In this document: one piece after another, positions 14,008 to 57,851 of the stretch
Layout of the letters: each line of letters begins with the position of its first letter
Position numbering within the stretch: position 1 is the stretch's first letter
Source: Bacteroidales bacterium UBA4070
GTDB taxonomy: Bacteria > Bacteroidota > Bacteroidia > Bacteroidales > VadinHA17
Reading direction: 5' to 3'
NCBI GenBank assembly: GCA_002383485.1
Contig: DFYY01000012.1
Coordinates: 101,717-165,716 of the forward strand
DNA length: 64,000 nucleotides
Notes under the pieces: model-generated
The model's input: the letters and a program-made list of their open reading frames with translations, nothing else
Told to the model about the DNA's origin: nothing
Databases searched by the model: none
Program-made: the position numbers and the translations under genes

Positions 14008-14538
14008 TCAGAATATCAGTGTAAGTGCAGTATATTTGATAAGCAGCCCGATAACAGTACAAATGAGTGTGTTGCGGATGTTGAGACGCAGCATTCCTGC
14101 AGCAAGGGAGATAACCGGAGAGGAGAGGGGCAAGGCATTGAACACGATTATCGTCAGGTTACCGTACTTTTCAATATTGGCTTCAGCCTTTTCATAACGT
14201 CTGCGGCCGATCAGGTTATCTATGAACCTGTTGCTGACTCCAAGCCCGATGGCATAATCAATTGCCTGCGAGAAAAGCGCGGTTCCTATTGCCACTGCAT
14301 TCAGGGCGAAAATGTTGACATCCCCGCTGAGATAGTAGACAAAAGCAATTTCCACAGGCATGAAGAGAAAGAAGAGATAGCCGCAGGCGTTCACAATGGC
14401 AAATGACAACAATCCGCCATCTCCTGTCCCGTTATAGATATCGCGCCCGACCGTCACGGAGGCAATGAAAACTGCAATGCAAACCAGCAGGATGGCAATA
14501 AAGATTCTTATTATCTCAGCTTTGCTCTTTCTGGCCAT
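14008..14538 (-). CDS. VTT/DedA (SNARE-associated)-like membrane protein
   Basis: 176 aa, multi-pass. Motifs are FMPVEIAF...Y.LG and ...IVFNALPLSSPVISLAAG. Confidence 0.65.
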   Translation of the reverse strand: MARKSKAEIIRIFIAILLVCIAVFIASVTVGRDIYNGTGDGGLLSFAIVNACGYLFFLFMPVEIAFVYYLSGDVNIFALNAVAIGTALFSQAIDYAIGLGVSNRFIDNLIGRRRYEKAEANIEKYGNLTIIVFNALPLSSPVISLAAGMLRLNIRNTLICTVIGLLIKYTALTLIF

Positions 14539-15005
14539 TACCAGTGGCTGTAGGGTTTGACTGACAGATATGAATTATAATATCTTGGGTCGGCTGTCAC
14601 TTCCTCTCCAAGCCAACCGGGTTTTTCAAACATCTCATCGGCGGATTCAAGCTCTATCTCGGCCATCACAAGCCCTTTGTTTTCAGCACCGAATACATCC
14701 ACTTCGAAGATATGGTCTCTGAACGGCACCAGATAGCGTGTCTTCATAACGGCAAAGGGTTGACAGAGCCTGAGCAGTTCCCGTGCATCATCAACCGGTA
14801 TCTCCTTTTCCCATTCATACCTTCCGATACCGGTATCAAAAGGCTTGCCCTTTACAGTAATGTACCCCCTGTCGCCACTGATCCTCACCCTGACGGTTCG
14901 ATCAGGATCATGAGCAAGATATCCCTGAACAATATCAGTAGCTTCCGTGGAATCAGCCATGAATTCACCACGGACAAGAAATTTTCTCTCTATTTCAAGT
15001 GCCAT
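14538..15005 (-). CDS. CYTH domain protein (triphosphate tunnel metalloenzyme)
   Basis: Carries the MALEIERKFLV signature ExExK, plus ...RVRI...ITVKG...EWE..I. It overlaps the next gene by 1 nt. Confidence 0.8.
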   Translation of the reverse strand: MALEIERKFLVRGEFMADSTEATDIVQGYLAHDPDRTVRVRISGDRGYITVKGKPFDTGIGRYEWEKEIPVDDARELLRLCQPFAVMKTRYLVPFRDHIFEVDVFGAENKGLVMAEIELESADEMFEKPGWLGEEVTADPRYYNSYLSVKPYSHW

Positions 15006-15107
15006 AGTTGTCCCGATAAAGATATAATTTCAGATGGGATAACAATAAAAGTTTTTTTTCTTCCTCCCGATCACCGTATATTATTTTTGTTTAATTTTGC
15101 CTCCGAA

Positions 15108-15182
15108 ATGATGAGAACATTAGCAACATACAACTATTCGTTTTATTTTTTCTTTTACCGCAGGGCAAAAGGGACTGAATAG
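15108..15182 (+). CDS. candidate 24-aa Phe/Tyr-rich leader peptide (MMRTLATYNYSFYFFFYRRAKGTE)
   Basis: Nine of twelve consecutive codons are Tyr or Phe. A TAttTTTG box lies at 15082-15089, 19 nt upstream. The terminator hairpin and pheA follow. Caveat: the region is T-rich. Confidence 0.5.
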   Translation: MMRTLATYNYSFYFFFYRRAKGTE

Positions 15183-15220
15183 TTGTATATCTGTATGAGA
15201 AATAGAATATGATGAAAAAG

Positions 15221-15247
15221 GTCCCGTGAAAGCGGGACTTTTTTTTT
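15221..15247 (+). terminator. attenuator-type intrinsic terminator between the leader ORF and pheA
   Basis: GTCCCG-TGAAAG-CGGGAC followed by nine T residues. It ends 11 nt before the pheA ATG. No plus-strand gene upstream needs terminating other than the leader. Confidence 0.6.
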
Positions 15248-15258
15248 GCACAACAGAG

Positions 15259-16143
15259 ATGACACAGGAAAAAAAGAAAATAAGCGTCGCCATCCAGGGT
15301 ATCAGGGGCTCATTCCATGAGATAGCTGCGGTTGAGTATTTCAGGGACAGTGAGATATCAGCCGTGCCATGTGAAACATTCAGTGATCTATTTACATTAC
15401 TTTCCGATGGCAGGGCTGATTACGGCATCGTTGCCTTCGAGAATTCGGTTGCTGGCAGCATACTGCCCAACTATGAGCTTTTGCGCCGCTCCGGCTTGCC
15501 CGTTACAGGAGAGATATGTCTTCGGGTCAGGCAGAACCTTGTGGCGTTGCCCGGCCAGCAGTTGTCGGATATCAGGGAGATCCATTCTCATCCGATGGCC
15601 ATTCAGCAGTGTTCCAGCTTCGTCAATGAGATGAGGCAGCGCGGGGTGAAGGTGGTGGAGGCCGTTGACACTGCCCTCAGCGCCAGGATAATAAGTGAGG
15701 AGCATCACTACGGTTCGGGTGCTATAGCCAGCAGCAGTGCAGCCGGAATTTACAGCCTCGCGATACTGAGGGAGGAGATTGAGGATGACAGCCTGAATTT
15801 CACCCGCTTCCTTATTATCTCAGGCAGCAGCACCGCTGCAGAAGAAAGAGCGAAGCCGGCAGGCCCCGACAAGGCGATGGTCTGCTTCTCCCTTCCCCAT
15901 AAGGTAGGCTCACTCTCGCAGGTACTGTCGGTGCTGACATACTACCAGATCAGCCTGACCAAGATTCAGTCACTGCCTATTGTCGGGAGACCGTGGGAGT
16001 ACATGTTTCATATTGATCTTATATACAGCGATTACACCCGTTACCGCATGGCACTGGATGCCATCAGACCGCTTACCGAAGGACTCGAGACAGTGGGTGA
16101 ATTCAGGCACGGCCTGATGCCTTACGAAACGGGAACAAATTAA
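15259..16143 (+). CDS. pheA: prephenate dehydratase
   Basis: IAIQGIRGSFHE..., the ..FENSVAGSI.. motif, and a C-terminal ACT-like domain. Confidence 0.85.
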   Translation: MTQEKKKISVAIQGIRGSFHEIAAVEYFRDSEISAVPCETFSDLFTLLSDGRADYGIVAFENSVAGSILPNYELLRRSGLPVTGEICLRVRQNLVALPGQQLSDIREIHSHPMAIQQCSSFVNEMRQRGVKVVEAVDTALSARIISEEHHYGSGAIASSSAAGIYSLAILREEIEDDSLNFTRFLIISGSSTAAEERAKPAGPDKAMVCFSLPHKVGSLSQVLSVLTYYQISLTKIQSLPIVGRPWEYMFHIDLIYSDYTRYRMALDAIRPLTEGLETVGEFRHGLMPYETGTN

Positions 16144-16158
16144 ACAGGCAGTGATATT

Positions 16159-17349
16159 ATGGATAAGCCACTGATTACAGCAGCATCACGCACCGGACTG
16201 GTGACCGAATATTATTTCTCGGCCAAGCTGGCTCAGATTGAGCGAATGCGGCAGGAGGGAGCCGATATCATAAACCTGGGCATCGGGAGCCCTGACATGG
16301 CTCCTGCATATGGGGTATCAGCAGAGCTTGCACGCAGTGCTTCGGTTAGCAGCAACCACGGATACCAGGGATACAGGGGCATACCCACGCTGCGCCAGGC
16401 TTTTGCTGAATGGTACGGAAAGTACTTCGCGGTGACACTGGATCCTGCCTCGGAGATTCTTCCGCTTATAGGCTCGAAGGAAGGCATAATGCATATCAGC
16501 ATGGCTTTTCTTGATCCGGGCGATGAAGTGCTGGTGCCTGATCCGGGTTACCCGGCATATGCCGCTGCAGCCAGCCTGGCTGGCGGTGTGGTCAGGAAGT
16601 ATGACCTCACAGAAGAGACTGGATGGTTACCCGATATCCGCGCCATTGAAGCAGCTGGTACAGAGAAAGTTAAGATCATGTGGATCAATTATCCCCATAT
16701 GCCCACCGGGGCCAAAGCAACGAGGGAGCTGTTTCATGAGCTTGTGGGTTTTGCCCTCAGGAACCATATCCTGCTCTGCAATGACAATCCGTACAGCTTC
16801 ATACTTAACAGTGACCACCTGAGCATTTTGTCGGTGCCGGAAGCAAGAGGTACGGCACTTGAGATGAACTCACTCAGCAAATCACACAACATGGCCGGAT
16901 GGAGGATCGGCATGCTGGCAGGACACAAACGCTATATTGATGATGTTCTGAAAGTCAAAAGCAATATGGATTCAGGCATGTTCAAACCTCTCCAGGAGGC
17001 AGCTGTGCTGGCACTGGCATCCCCGGATGAGTGGTATACGAAGCTGAATGAAGTCTACATCCGCCGCCGCAGGTACGTCGGAGAGATAATGGATGAGCTC
17101 GGTTGCAGCTACAACCCCTACCAGTCGGGACTGTTTCTATGGGGCAGGATACCTGACACATATGGCGATGCCGGGGAACTGACAGAGGAACTCCTTCACC
17201 GGAATCATCTGTTTGTTACACCCGGATCGGTGTTCGGTGACAATGGCCTGAGATACATAAGACTTTCGCTCTGCGCTGAGGAGGAGATAATGATCAAGGC
17301 TCTGCAGCGGATAAGAAGCGGAGCAAAGAAAAAAGTAACAACAAACTGA
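16159..17349 (+). CDS. class I/II PLP-dependent aminotransferase (likely aromatic/aspartate)
   Basis: INLGIGSPD..., NYPHMPTG, and SLSKSHNMAGWRIG, where the Lys is the PLP-binding residue. Confidence 0.85.
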   Translation: MDKPLITAASRTGLVTEYYFSAKLAQIERMRQEGADIINLGIGSPDMAPAYGVSAELARSASVSSNHGYQGYRGIPTLRQAFAEWYGKYFAVTLDPASEILPLIGSKEGIMHISMAFLDPGDEVLVPDPGYPAYAAAASLAGGVVRKYDLTEETGWLPDIRAIEAAGTEKVKIMWINYPHMPTGAKATRELFHELVGFALRNHILLCNDNPYSFILNSDHLSILSVPEARGTALEMNSLSKSHNMAGWRIGMLAGHKRYIDDVLKVKSNMDSGMFKPLQEAAVLALASPDEWYTKLNEVYIRRRRYVGEIMDELGCSYNPYQSGLFLWGRIPDTYGDAGELTEELLHRNHLFVTPGSVFGDNGLRYIRLSLCAEEEIMIKALQRIRSGAKKKVTTN

Positions 17350-17355
17350 AGGATA

Positions 17356-18207
17356 ATGTCTGCAAATATCTGTATAACAGGACTGGGACTTATAGGAGGA
17401 TCGATGGCGCGAAACCTGAGACTCAATGGTTACATGGGAAGGATAATTGGGGTTGATGCCAATCCCCATCACTGTACAATTGCAATGTACCGCGGACTGG
17501 CTGATGAGTTCCTGCCACTCGAAGAAGCTGTTGAAAAGTCAGATATCATCATCCTTTGTGCACCTGTTGATGTCAACTGCCGGCTGCTGCCCGGAATCCT
17601 CGACATGATTGCCGGCACCGGCAAGGTGGTCGCGGATATGGGTTCAACAAAGTCTGATATTGCCGCTGTGGCCGACAGACATCCGGCACGCGGAAGGTAT
17701 GTTGCCGCTCACCCTATGGCCGGCACCGAGCACTCAGGACCGGCGGCGGCAGTAGACAGGCTCTTCAGTGAAAAGATAGCCATAATCTGTGACCCTGAAA
17801 AAAGCGATGATGACGCACTGGAACTCATCACCGCGCTCCTGCAGTCGTTTAACATGAAGATCCAGTATATGGACTCCGGGGAACATGATGTGCATGTGGC
17901 CTATGTGTCTCACATCTCTCACATCACCTCCTTTGCGCTGGCACTGTGCGTCCTCGAGAAGGAGAAGGACACCCGCAATATAATGTCCCTTGCCGCCGGA
18001 GGCTTCGAGAGTACCGTACGTCTTTCAAAGAGCAATGCCGAGACATGGGCTCCCATATTCGCGGACAATGCCGGACCGATACTGGAAGTGATCGATACAT
18101 ATATAGACAAGATGAATCTTTTCAGAAAGCATATCGAAAGCGGTGACCGTGAATCGCTCAGGCAGCTGATGACCGCGGCCAACCGGATAGGGAAAATCCT
18201 TAAATAA
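17356..18207 (+). CDS. tyrA: prephenate dehydrogenase
   Basis: ITGLGLIGGS Rossmann motif, ..AAHPMAGTEHSG.., and HDVHVAYVSHISH. Confidence 0.85.
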   Translation: MSANICITGLGLIGGSMARNLRLNGYMGRIIGVDANPHHCTIAMYRGLADEFLPLEEAVEKSDIIILCAPVDVNCRLLPGILDMIAGTGKVVADMGSTKSDIAAVADRHPARGRYVAAHPMAGTEHSGPAAAVDRLFSEKIAIICDPEKSDDDALELITALLQSFNMKIQYMDSGEHDVHVAYVSHISHITSFALALCVLEKEKDTRNIMSLAAGGFESTVRLSKSNAETWAPIFADNAGPILEVIDTYIDKMNLFRKHIESGDRESLRQLMTAANRIGKILK

Positions 18208-18222
18208 AACTCTGACTATACA

Positions 18223-19350
18223 ATGAACACAGACAGTCTTATCATGACCACCACAAGAACAAGGAACAGCCTCAATATAGAGCCTGTGGAGGAGTGGCCG
18301 GTTTTCAAGAAACGGCCTCTTGTTATAGCCGGGCCGTGCAGTGCCGAGAGTGAGGAGCAGGTTATGTCCACTGCTGCCGCTTTGGTGGCGTCCGGCCGGG
18401 TTGATATCTTCCGTGCCGGCGTATGGAAACCCCGTACCCGGCCGGGCCAGTTTGAGGGAGTAGGCATCACGGGGCTCAAATGGCTCCGCCGTGTGAGGGA
18501 TCAGTTCGGCCTCCCGGTATCAGTGGAGGTGGCTACGGAAAAGCATGTATATGAAGCCCTGAAGCACGGAATGGACGCCGTCTGGATAGGAGCAAGAACC
18601 AGCGTTAATCCGTTTGCACTCCAGGAAATTGCAACAGCCCTGAAGGATTCAGACGTTATGGTGTTCGTGAAAAATCCCGTTAACCCGGACCTTGAGCTTT
18701 GGATCGGCGCCATTGAACGCCTTAGCCATGCCGGCATCACCCGGATTGCAGCCATACACCGTGGTTTCTCCAGCTGGGAAAAGAGTTCCTTCCGTAATCA
18801 GCCCAGGTGGCAGATAGCAGTGGAGCTCAGACAGCGTCTGCCCGGCGTTGGCATGTTATGCGACCCAAGTCATATGGGAGGCGACACTGCATTCATCGGT
18901 GATCTGTCGCAGAAGGCAATGGACCTCCAGTATGACGGTTTGATGATAGAGACACACATTGATCCCCCCAGTGCCCTCAGCGACAGGAAACAGCAGATCA
19001 CTCCCGTGGAGCTGATGAAAGTGCTGGGGAACCTGGTACTCAGGTCTCCGACCACAGATAATCCGGAGTTTCTTGAGACCATCGAGGATCTGCGCAGTCA
19101 GATTGATGTGTATGACAATCTGCTTCTGGATATTCTTGAGAGCAGGATGCAGGTGGCAGAAACAATAGGCCGTTACAAGAAGGAGCATAACATCACCATT
19201 CTACAGAGCAGCCGGTGGAGGGAGGTGAAGGACAATGCAGTGGACAAGGGCGTCAGAAAGGGTTTGACACCTGAGTTCATCCAGGCGATCCTGGAGGCCA
19301 TTCACCAGGAATCGATCACCCACCAGATGAAAGTGATGAAAGATGAGTAA
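18223..19350 (+). CDS. bifunctional 3-deoxy-7-phosphoheptulonate synthase / chorismate mutase type II
   Basis: The N-terminal DAHPS-like part has IAGPCSAESEEQ, FRAGVWKPRT, LCDPSH and ..ETH. The C-terminal CM_2 domain has LRSQIDVYDNLLLDILESRMQV...I. Confidence 0.85.
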   Translation: MNTDSLIMTTTRTRNSLNIEPVEEWPVFKKRPLVIAGPCSAESEEQVMSTAAALVASGRVDIFRAGVWKPRTRPGQFEGVGITGLKWLRRVRDQFGLPVSVEVATEKHVYEALKHGMDAVWIGARTSVNPFALQEIATALKDSDVMVFVKNPVNPDLELWIGAIERLSHAGITRIAAIHRGFSSWEKSSFRNQPRWQIAVELRQRLPGVGMLCDPSHMGGDTAFIGDLSQKAMDLQYDGLMIETHIDPPSALSDRKQQITPVELMKVLGNLVLRSPTTDNPEFLETIEDLRSQIDVYDNLLLDILESRMQVAETIGRYKKEHNITILQSSRWREVKDNAVDKGVRKGLTPEFIQAILEAIHQESITHQMKVMKDE

Positions 19351-19392
19351 ATTAGCAGTTGAACCGGGCCGCTGAGGCCACATTCTGACTTT

Positions 19393-20643
19393 ATGAATAT
19401 AACCGTCAGTCCGTCAGGAATTAACGGAACAGTTGAGGCGCCTTCAAGCAAAAGCCTGACTCAGAGAGCTATAGCTGCAGGATTACTGGCAGGGGGGACC
19501 ACTGTGATCCGGAATCCGACATATTGCAATGACTCTATTGCCGCGATGGCAATGGCTGGCGAGCTGGGTGCATCGGTTCAAGGGGAGCCTGACAGGATAA
19601 TCATCAGGGCCGGCCGGAAGCCCTCCGGGCCTGTGACGCTGAACTGCTCGGAGTCGGGGCTCGCTTTGCGTATGTTTGCCCCGGTAGCCGCTCTGGTCTC
19701 AGACAGTGTGACGCTCACGGGAAAAGGTTCGCTCATGCGCAGACCAGTGACTATGATCGGGCAGGCGCTGAGTCAGCTGGGAGTCACGGTTGAGACAACT
19801 GAAGGGATGTTACCCGTGAAGCTCTCCGGGCGGCTTAGGGCAGGCAGGGCTTTTATTGACGGTTCTGCCGGATCGCAGCTGCTGACGGGGCTGCTGATGG
19901 CACTTCCTCTTGCAGAAGGGGAGAGCAGGCTTGACGTGGCCAGTCTCACCAGTAAGCCATACATCGGGCTCACTCTCGGGTTGCTGGCAGAGTTTGGCAT
20001 CCCGGTTGTGAATGACAGTTTCAGATCATTTATCATCCCCGGGAATCAGTTCTACAGGGCACATGAGTACACTGTGGAGGGCGACTGGAGCGGGGCTGCA
20101 TTCCTTCTGGTTGCCGGAGCCACGGCAGGCAGGGTGACTGTTGACGGACTGAATCCTCACAGTATGCAGGCTGACAGGGCAATACTTAGGGCATTGGATG
20201 AGGCCGGTGCTGCTCTCATCACAGGTCCCGGCGGTATTACCTCCTCTTTGTCAGAGCTCCGGGCGTTTACTTTTGATGCCACCGATTCTCCTGATCTTTT
20301 CCCCCCGCTGGCAGCGCTGGCCGCACGTTGTGAGGGCACCAGCAGAATCATGGGTGTGGGCAGGCTAAGGCATAAGGAGAGCGACAGGGCGGAGGCTATC
20401 GCCGGTGTGCTGGAGGCCATGAAGATCACCGTCCGCATCAGCGGAGATGAGATGCTCATCACGGGAGGCAGGTTGGAGGGAGCGGTGGTCTCCTCACATA
20501 ATGACCACCGCATAGCGATGATGGCTGCAGTGATGGCTGCCGGCGCCACAGGTCCGGTGACGGTAACGGGAGCCGAAGCAGTGGCAAAATCATATCCCGG
20601 CTTCTATGATGATCTCGTCAGCCTTGGTGCAAGAATCTACTGA
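19393..20643 (+). CDS. aroA: 3-phosphoshikimate 1-carboxyvinyltransferase (EPSP synthase)
   Basis: PSSKSLTQRA, LRHKESDR, and HNDHRIAMMAAV motifs. Confidence 0.9.
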   Translation: MNITVSPSGINGTVEAPSSKSLTQRAIAAGLLAGGTTVIRNPTYCNDSIAAMAMAGELGASVQGEPDRIIIRAGRKPSGPVTLNCSESGLALRMFAPVAALVSDSVTLTGKGSLMRRPVTMIGQALSQLGVTVETTEGMLPVKLSGRLRAGRAFIDGSAGSQLLTGLLMALPLAEGESRLDVASLTSKPYIGLTLGLLAEFGIPVVNDSFRSFIIPGNQFYRAHEYTVEGDWSGAAFLLVAGATAGRVTVDGLNPHSMQADRAILRALDEAGAALITGPGGITSSLSELRAFTFDATDSPDLFPPLAALAARCEGTSRIMGVGRLRHKESDRAEAIAGVLEAMKITVRISGDEMLITGGRLEGAVVSSHNDHRIAMMAAVMAAGATGPVTVTGAEAVAKSYPGFYDDLVSLGARIY

Positions 20644-30867: not shown

Positions 30868-30939
30868 GCCTCCTTAGCTCAGTGGTAGAGCAGCTCACTC
30901 GTAATGAGCAGGTCGTGGGTTCAACTCCCATGGGAGGCT
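30868..30939 (+). tRNA. tRNA-Thr (anticodon CGT)
   Basis: A manual cloverleaf fits. The acceptor is GCCTCCT/GGGAGGC, the D arm GCTC..GAGC, the anticodon stem GCTCA/TGAGC with loop CTCGTAA, and the T arm GTGGG-TTCAACT-CCCAT. Confidence 0.85.
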
Positions 30940-30949
30940 CGGAGAAAAG

Positions 30950-31055: not shown

Positions 31056-31128
31056 GCGGGAATAGCTCAGTTGGTAGAGCATCAGCTTCCCAAGCTGAGG
31101 GCCGCGAGTTCGAATCTCGTTTCCCGCT
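31056..31128 (+). tRNA. tRNA-Gly (anticodon CCC)
   Basis: A manual cloverleaf fits. The acceptor is GCGGGAA/TTCCCGC, the anticodon stem TCAGC/GCTGA with loop TTCCCAA, and the T arm GCGAG-TTCGAAT-CTCGT. Confidence 0.85.
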
Positions 31129-31282
31129 CAGACAAAAAGCAGGCCACGCCAGTGACCCCTTTTTACCTGATAGTCAGGTATCTGTTCCGGCAGGTCAGTA
31201 TCCGGCTTTGCGGTCCTCCGGAACCGGAGCATCCAGCCGTGTACCGCACCTCTTGCAGTAAATGGCATCATCATCATGCCTG

Positions 31283-57617: not shown

Positions 57618-57690
57618 GATTCAGTAGCTCAGCTGGTAGAGCACATCCCTTTTAAGGATGGGGTCCTGGGTTCGAGCCCCAGCTGGATCA
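57618..57690 (+). tRNA. tRNA-Lys (anticodon TTT)
   Basis: A manual cloverleaf fits. The acceptor is GATTCAG/CTGGATC with one G-U pair, the anticodon stem CATCC/GGATG with loop CTTTTAA, and the T arm CTGGG-TTCGAGC-CCCAG. Confidence 0.85.
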
Positions 57691-57693
57691 CAT

Positions 57694-57717
57694 GGCAGCC
57701 GGAAGGCTGCCTTTTTT
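57694..57717 (+). terminator. terminator after tRNA-Lys
   Basis: GGCAGCC-GGAA-GGCTGCC followed by T6. Confidence 0.7.
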
Positions 57718-57802: not shown

Positions 57803-57851
57803 GGTTCGAGCCCCAGCTGGATCACATGGCAGCCGGAAGGCTGCCTTTTTT
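57803..57851 (+). repeat. 49-nt perfect direct repeat of the tRNA-Lys 3' part plus its terminator
   Basis: Identical to 57669-57717 (GGTTCGAGCCCCAGCTGGATCACATGGCAGCCGGAAGGCTGCCTTTTTT). Confidence 0.9.

Follow-up and report, generated by a model that had tools for sequence, protein, structure and literature searches.

The intergenic region upstream of the aromatic amino acid operon of Bacteroidales bacterium UBA4070 very probably contains a ribosome-mediated leader-peptide transcription attenuator, which would sense charged tRNA-Phe and tRNA-Tyr and control the operon pheA-aminotransferase-tyrA-aroG/CM-aroA. The evidence observed directly consists of the sequence features of this region, their conservation, the covariation between them, and the agreement of the codons in the leader with the genes of the operon. 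Positions are given for the window, which is the whole stretch of DNA analyzed here (64,000 nucleotides of the contig DFYY01000012.1).

The operon comprises five genes on the plus strand (15259-20643), recognized by Pfam matches, short gaps and a gene order kept in relatives. The first gene encodes a prephenate dehydratase of 294 aa (pheA, 15259-16143), fully covered by homologues of equal length. It is followed by a class I/II aminotransferase (16159-17349), a prephenate dehydrogenase (tyrA, 17356-18207), a DAHP synthase-chorismate mutase fusion (18223-19350) and an EPSP synthase (aroA, 19393-20643), all on the plus strand. Upstream, a CYTH-domain gene identified with Pfam is encoded on the minus strand (14538-15005). 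This gene is divergent from pheA, and therefore the terminator described below ends no upstream gene and can act solely on transcripts begun in the intergenic region of 253 nt.

The leader ORF, MMRTLATYNYSFYFFFYRRAKGTE, was recognized by reading of the sequence and by its conservation. It consists of 24 codons on the plus strand (15108-15182), with the ATG at 15108 and a TAG ending at 15182; re-reading of 14700-15500 agrees with the coordinates given in a preliminary description of this DNA. An alternative in-frame start is present at 15111. A longer mechanical ORF in the same frame (14712-15182) was rejected, since it lacks conservation and runs across the CYTH gene, which is encoded on the opposite strand. 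Eight aromatic residues are encoded in the leader (Y8, Y10, F12, Y13, F14, F15, F16 and Y17), and they fall in the sensor codons Y-N-Y-S-F-Y-F-F-F-Y (15129-15158, plus strand), that is, 8 Phe/Tyr in the 10 consecutive codons from Y8 to Y17. The preliminary description counted Tyr or Phe in nine of twelve consecutive codons, a miscount by one, and cautioned that T-richness inflates Phe codons by chance. The T content of the leader region is 35%, but the run is not explained thereby. In dinucleotide-preserving shuffles with the target of 8 F/Y inside a 12-codon window, the target was reached in 0/2000 shuffles of the 253-nt intergenic region (mean 2.3, maximum 7) and 0/5000 shuffles of the ORF body (mean 3.1, maximum 7), or 0/7000 together. 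Among 26 aligned close relatives, the run codons have T at position 1 in 26/26, while position 2 is restricted to T or A and position 3 to T or C. Every change is therefore a Phe-to-Tyr swap or synonymous, a pattern that fits the signature of selection on Phe/Tyr codon identity.

The preliminary description proposed comparing the pheA upstream regions of related genomes. From species-representative genomes, 80 loci (L001-L080) were collected through alignment of dehydratase homologues. Bacteroidales MAGs make up nearly all of them, and those closest to the window bear the label Rikenella or Rikenellaceae. The 400 nt before each match were extracted by script, and 78 loci were usable. An in-frame short ORF rich in F/Y (sometimes W), followed by a terminator, precedes the dehydratase in ~68 of the 78. 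These positive loci belong to Bacteroidales, with the addition of one MAG labelled Lentisphaeria. Their leader ORFs are 15-35 codons long, and the N-termini, lengths and C-termini vary widely, while the frame, the aromatic run and the terminator persist. The stop codon is 3-43 nt from the terminator (18-43 nt in 66/68), and the terminator is 11 to ~150 nt from the start of the dehydratase match.

The conservation of an ORF that could be translated raises the explanation that it encodes a functional small hydrophobic peptide, incidental to pheA. Against it, only the aromatic run and the codons overlapping region 2 (see below) are conserved, and the remainder, the length and the C-terminus vary. 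The C-terminal codons follow the sequence of the terminator arm and not a peptide motif, and the ORF invariably accompanies a terminator and the dehydratase. A functional peptide is thus regarded as extremely unlikely.

The leader of the positive locus labelled Lentisphaeria (L061) is MTATRSYFYFSVYFFAFAKRGV, an F/Y leader which stands with a covarying antiterminator and a terminator ~240-125 nt before the dehydratase match. The loci from Kiritimatiellae and Victivallales (L063 and L074) are without leader, antiterminator and terminator. Mis-binning, gene transfer or a wider distribution could account for the occurrence of the element in L061, outside Bacteroidota. In another MAG, labelled uncultured Bacteroides sp. 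(L069), a tandem pair of leader-plus-terminator units precedes the dehydratase (2248-2480 of the locus). The first unit consists of MKRIFEYSYFYFI with its stop codon and then GAAGTCCCG...CGGGACTTTTTT, and its antiterminator is weak. The second consists of MSPNVFAYYFFYFFWTRSGPGKL with its stop codon and then CCCGGTC...GCCGGG-T9, and its antiterminator is clear (GACCGGGA with CCCGGTC).

The codon cluster in the window matches the products of the operon, Phe and Tyr, and this correspondence extends to the relatives. Operon content was determined by searching all loci with the five window proteins (tblastn). The dehydratase gene is solitary in 12 loci, where its neighbours are ilvD or a PhoU-like gene past long gaps. 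Before a solitary pheA, the leaders are of the Phe-only type: their best 10 codons include 5-7 F and 0-1 Y. An example is MNRSIISNGFFFFFFGYPEKGL, and the Tyr count is ≤1 in 12/12. In 56 loci the dehydratase gene heads an operon with aminotransferase, prephenate dehydrogenase and/or DAHP synthase-chorismate mutase, and the Tyr count is ≥2 in 54/56 of these leaders. Fisher's exact test for Tyr content against operon content gives p = 1e-11, with kinship among the loci ignored. Related leaders ending in GLICY are found in both groups: the one in L028, where pheA is solitary, has Y = 1, and those before the operons of L031 and L067 have Y = 3-4. The Tyr difference is therefore not only an effect of lineage. 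Such a match would be expected of a product sensor, but not of a structural RNA or a functional peptide. The earlier suggestion that a Phe plus Tyr leader suits an operon making both amino acids thus extends to a pattern: Phe-only leaders precede solitary pheA, and mixed leaders precede multi-gene operons.

The intrinsic terminator (15214-15247, plus strand) was identified by MFE fold, RNAalifold and conservation. It is composed of a 5' arm with the core GGUCCCG (region 3, 15214-15227), a loop (15228-15231), a 3' arm (region 4, 15232-15245) and a U9 tract (15239-15247). The core of the hairpin, GTCCCG (15221-15226) and CGGGAC (15233-15238) followed by nine T, was already noted in the preliminary description, together with the pheA ATG 11 nt past the T run; the hairpin and T run were found again at 15221-15247 and are kept in relatives, and the ATG was located at 15259. 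The generic terminator scan reported the minus-strand reading of the hairpin only and missed the plus-strand terminator, which was located by direct reading and MFE fold. The stem (15214-15245) with its U9 tract thus represents a terminator that serves no upstream gene, as required of an attenuator.

Start sites in Bacteroidota rely on unstructured upstream RNA, not on Shine-Dalgarno sequences. With the U tract ending just 11 nt before the pheA ATG, this lends some weight to the explanation that the hairpin mainly occludes the translation start of pheA. The hairpin scores as a terminator on the minus strand too, which counts for a related explanation, that it is a constitutive partial terminator or insulator. 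However, the GC-rich stem with 8-9 U is a canonical intrinsic terminator and is kept in nearly all loci, and the variable spacing between terminator and dehydratase means that occlusion of the start site is not conserved. In the gene map of the window, no gene on either side is directed towards the hairpin, and an insulator has no need of the competitor helix described below, which covaries and lies at a fixed distance from the sensor codons. Occlusion or insulation is accordingly considered very unlikely.

Two further strands complete the attenuator structure. Region 1 (15128-15159, plus strand) is the 5' strand of the anti-antiterminator, identified by MFE fold, pairing in the alignment and RNAalifold. 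It is divided into an outer part (15128-15140) and an inner part (15149-15159) that includes Phe/Tyr codons. Region 2 (15164-15188, plus strand) extends over the end of the leader ORF, including its last codons and the stop codon (15180-15182), and its core GGGACU (15171-15176) is the partner of the terminator 5' arm; this pairing is the antiterminator. In the MFE fold, the outer 1:2 helix is formed by 15128-15140 (codons T-Y-N-Y-S) and 15176-15188 (the last codon, the stop and the next six bases), and the inner 1:2 helix by the Phe/Tyr codons at 15149-15159 and 15164-15174 (AAAAGGGA). In this ribosome-free fold, the 1:2 helix buries GGGAC (15171-15175). All elements of the structural model in the preliminary description survived testing; the model lacked the 1:2 helix. 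The outer helix of the antiterminator (15171-15176 with 15220-15225) has only 6 bp. The masked nascent folds described below add inner helices (15182-15213, plus strand), in which 15182-15188 pairs with 15207-15213 and 15190-15194 with 15202-15206. The z-score of the 156-nt leader fold is -4.6.

Pairing was quantified in the 26-sequence alignment of close relatives, with the same structure slid by 1-3 columns as controls. The fraction of cells paired was 91.6% for the 1:2 helix (slid controls 45-53%), 86.4% for the antiterminator including its inner helices (15171-15176:15220-15225 and 15182-15194:15202-15213; controls 40-52%), and 93.4% for the terminator (controls 47-70%), where the aligned structures have an advantage over the slid controls as they were derived from the window sequence itself. 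The antiterminator core (15171-15176:15220-15225) is 99% paired, invariant or compensated, and its inner helices are 81% paired with weak covariation. Most pairs are invariant in this close group and covariation is modest; the block speaks for conservation more than for covariation. Unguided RNAalifold recovered both the 1:2 helix and the terminator. Sequestration of region 2 by the 1:2 helix is thus seen in the window and the 26 close relatives, and in distant loci 1:2 pairing is predicted in only about half, a raw count uncontrolled for background.

The pairing of the U-rich run with the purine tract AAAAGGGA constrains the same bases as the codons do. It could explain part of the conservation if the leader were a translation-independent RNA switch, responding to a protein, tRNA or small-molecule ligand, with the F/Y codons as a by-product of a U-rich pairing strand in a T-rich region (35% T). 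Such a strand, however, has no reason to vary with the genes beyond pheA as the Tyr content does. The changes in the run are codon-phased and limited to F-to-Y or synonymous ones, and the ATG, open frame and stop are retained in ~68 loci despite varying N-terminus and length. No match to a riboswitch or T-box of Rfam was found in the leader or in the whole window, which also counts against an RNA switch. This possibility is judged very improbable.

Covariation in the distant loci is the decisive evidence for the predicted antiterminator. In each locus, the best partner of the terminator 5' arm was searched for between the aromatic run and the terminator. In most loci, 11-13 nt separate the last aromatic codon from the start of the partner, which overlaps the final codons of the leader. 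The pair of partner and arm is GGGACU and GGUCCC or AGUCCC in most loci. It is replaced by UCCGGGA and UCCCGGA in L037, L043 and L044, CUCGGGA and UCCCGAG in L050 and L052, GCGGGGU and GCCCCGC in L061, UUUCGGGAU and AUCCCGAAA in L066, L078 and L080, GACCGGGA and UCCCGGUC in L070 and L079, GAGACC and GGUCUC in L030, and GCUUUCGGGA and CCCGGAAGC in L076. In a permutation set with one locus per arm class (23 arm classes), the mean duplex dG of partners with their own arms was -11.1 kcal/mol, versus -8.5 +/- 0.4 kcal/mol with permuted arms, and 0/20000 permutations were as low. The GGGAC:GTCCC antiterminator put forward in the preliminary description is therefore invariant or compensated in close relatives and covaries with the arm in distant ones, and it shares a strand with the terminator, as expected of an attenuator.

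Ribosome-masked folds of the full leader at equilibrium were tried as a test of switching and abandoned. The terminator was always preferred, with or without a ribosome mask, and the states were indistinguishable. The equilibrium preference for the terminator implies that the switch must be kinetic, and folds of the nascent transcript were therefore used instead. The nascent transcript was ended at 15231, where the 5' arm and loop have been made and the 3' arm is absent. With the ribosome mask at any one of four F/Y codons tried (15141, 15147, 15153 and 15156), the GGGACU:GGUCCC antiterminator forms and is closed over the inner helices. With the mask on the stop codon, the antiterminator is lost. 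Without a ribosome, the nascent fold shows little difference in energy between the antiterminator and the 1:2 structure. Counted from the first base of the last Tyr codon, the region 2 core starts 15 nt downstream; its start is 9 nt and its end 4 nt before the leader stop codon, a geometry that matches E. coli trpL. With an assumed footprint size, a stalled ribosome would free region 2 and a terminating ribosome would mask it. The masked nascent folds thus reproduce in a model the ribosome geometry proposed earlier, in which a stall frees the antiterminator and arrival at the stop masks it, and the alternative-structure folding suggested in the preliminary description as a check yields a predicted switch.

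A Bacteroidota-type -7 box, TAATTTTG (consensus TAnnTTTG), is present at 15092-15099 on the plus strand. The box is conserved and occupies this position in most loci, and T15092, A15093, T15096 and T15097 of its TAnnTT (15092-15097) are invariant among the 26 aligned close relatives. The promoter box of the preliminary description, TATTTTTG at 15082-15089 on the plus strand, does exist in the sequence as a perfect consensus match, but its alignment columns are variable and it is missing from L001, L002, L005, L008, L009 and L011; the conserved box lies 10 nt further downstream. The box at 15082-15089 might act as a secondary promoter or match the consensus by chance. In the pheA promoter of Flavobacterium psychrophilum, the supplement of PMC9723704 places the mapped transcription start site (TSS) 5 nt past the G of the box. 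By the motif and this spacing alone, transcription in the window is predicted to start near 15104, 4 nt 5' of the leader AUG.

The spacing of boxes was scanned in the 60 nt 5' of the leader ATGs of L001-L080. The distance from box to ATG is bimodal, with 4-11 nt in 35/64 loci and 15-24 nt in ~20. In L030, L035, L045, L053, L028 and L029, a spacing of 4-7 nt separates a perfect box from the ATG. The spacing of 4-11 nt suggests a 5' UTR of 0-7 nt, and that many of the sensor ORFs may be leaderless or nearly so. The bimodality suggests two possible designs of sensor ORF, one nearly leaderless and the other with a 5' UTR of ~11-20 nt. By comparison, a 5' UTR <10 nt occurs in only ~3.7% of B. thetaiotaomicron mRNAs (PMC7366714).

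Taken together with the attenuator architecture, these features lead us to infer the start of transcription, the translation of the leader and a response to amino acid supply. The -7 box at 15092-15099 would direct transcription from a few bases 5' of the leader AUG. With an ample supply of Phe and Tyr, the ribosome would pass the eight F/Y codons, reach the stop at 15180 and cover GGGACU (15171-15176). With region 2 covered, the terminator (15214-15247) would form, and transcription would stop 11 nt before pheA. With Phe or Tyr in short supply, the ribosome would stall at 15129-15158, covering region 1 and leaving region 2 free. The free region 2 would then pair with GGUCCC (15220-15225) before the 3' arm exists, and RNA polymerase would read into the operon. 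If the leader is not translated, region 1 would pair with region 2, and termination would be the default.

The proposed attenuator resembles E. coli pheL-pheA (RF01859) and trpL, hisL, leuL and thrL in several respects. Its short ORF has cognate codons in tandem, its four regions form 1:2, 2:3 and 3:4 helices that exclude one another, an intrinsic terminator stands right before the first biosynthetic gene, and the stop codon is placed for a terminating ribosome to mask region 2. E. coli pheL is Phe-only and controls pheA alone. In contrast, the sensor in the window mixes Phe and Tyr, and its predicted control covers both branches and the genes of the common pathway. It also differs from pheL by a Bacteroidota-type promoter, the lack of a Shine-Dalgarno sequence, and a 5' UTR of probably 0-7 nt. 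The Rfam model RF01859 (Phe_leader) aligns to the window at full length with 40.7 bits and E = 2e-5, against a gathering score of 55. The scores in the close relatives L003 and L001 are 37.8 and 35.0 bits, and no match to RF01859 was obtained in eight more distant loci. The window element is thus outside the curated RF01859 family, though the architecture is alike.

An attenuator of this kind has already been proposed in Bacteroidota, for pheA of F. psychrophilum. Leader-peptide attenuation of pheA-aspC3 was predicted in that species (Guerin et al. 2021, PMC9723704, SI D9, Table S7), and the supplementary entries report a mapped TSS, a 170-nt 5' region and condition-dependent read-through. These entries give a prediction and expression profiles, without covariation analysis; the profiles lend indirect support to the read-through expected when the cognate amino acid or charged tRNA is limiting. 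The element is likewise upstream of pheA-aminotransferase in the same phylum, and its leader MNTNNTFYSNNSFYFYWNIGRDCYMVI has the S-F-Y-F core in common with the window leader. The GGGA-bearing GGGATTGT, ~10 nt past the last aromatic codon, has its complement in the 5' arm of the terminator (ACAATCCC), and this terminator has a U9 tract as in the window. The two elements differ in class (Flavobacteriia and Bacteroidia), and the likeness is one of design. The supplement gives a mapped 5' UTR of ~20 nt, versus the 4 nt predicted in the window, and the leader stop is further downstream of region 2 than in the window. What the Bacteroidales loci add is sequence-based: the breadth of distribution, the covariation, the apparent tuning of sensor codons to operon content, and an inferred short 5' UTR.

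The Bacteroid-trp leader (RF01692; Weinberg et al. 2010, PMC2864571) is another predicted leader-peptide attenuator of an aromatic operon in Bacteroidota. It differs from the window element in having Trp codons and preceding trp genes, and no match to it was found in the leader at E up to 10 or in the whole window at the gathering threshold. Beyond the F. psychrophilum supplement, the literature found on a Phe attenuator in Bacteroides was limited to a general remark on short ORFs of B. thetaiotaomicron, and the supplements for B. thetaiotaomicron contain no prephenate dehydratase entry. Further afield, leaderless polycysteine short ORFs described by Canestrari and colleagues in 2020 reportedly attenuate Cys genes in mycobacteria. 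They resemble the window leader as cognate-codon-rich sensor ORFs at or beside the transcription start, but differ in phylum, amino acid and a mechanism that is reportedly not terminator-based. Attenuators in Bacteroidetes/Chlorobi are reportedly mentioned by Vitreschak and colleagues in 2004.

At the gathering threshold, the only Rfam matches in the whole window are tRNA-Thr(cgt) (30868-30940), tRNA-Gly(ccc) (31056-31129) and tRNA-Lys, the first two being close together. A perfect 49-nt direct repeat occurs at 57669-57717 and 57803-57851, with starts 134 nt apart. The repeat contains the 3' end of tRNA-Lys(ttt) (gene 57618-57691) and a terminator hairpin, GGCAGCCGGAAGGCTGCC-T6, and resembles the trace left where an element has entered, or has been cut out of, the 3' end of tRNA-Lys. 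No other leader-peptide attenuator was found in the window by a crude scan, whose finder also missed the pheA terminator.

The textbook picture of attenuation is unchanged by these results. They provide a well-supported annotation of cis-regulation for the principal aromatic amino acid operon in an uncultured lineage of Bacteroidales that resembles Rikenellaceae. Classical ribosome-mediated attenuation is predicted to be widespread in Bacteroidales, a group with unusual promoters and without initiation driven by Shine-Dalgarno sequences. Whether the loci belong to a Bacteroidota-wide family of aromatic attenuators absent from Rfam, with a leaderless or near-leaderless sensor ORF and a Phe:Tyr mix evolutionarily tuned to operon content, is a close call, and we lean slightly to the doubtful side. 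The ~68 covarying examples could seed an RNA family model that is missing from current annotation. The likely near-leaderless start bears on transcription-translation coupling in Bacteroidota, and the match between sensor codons and operon content offers a clean natural experiment in the tuning of attenuators.
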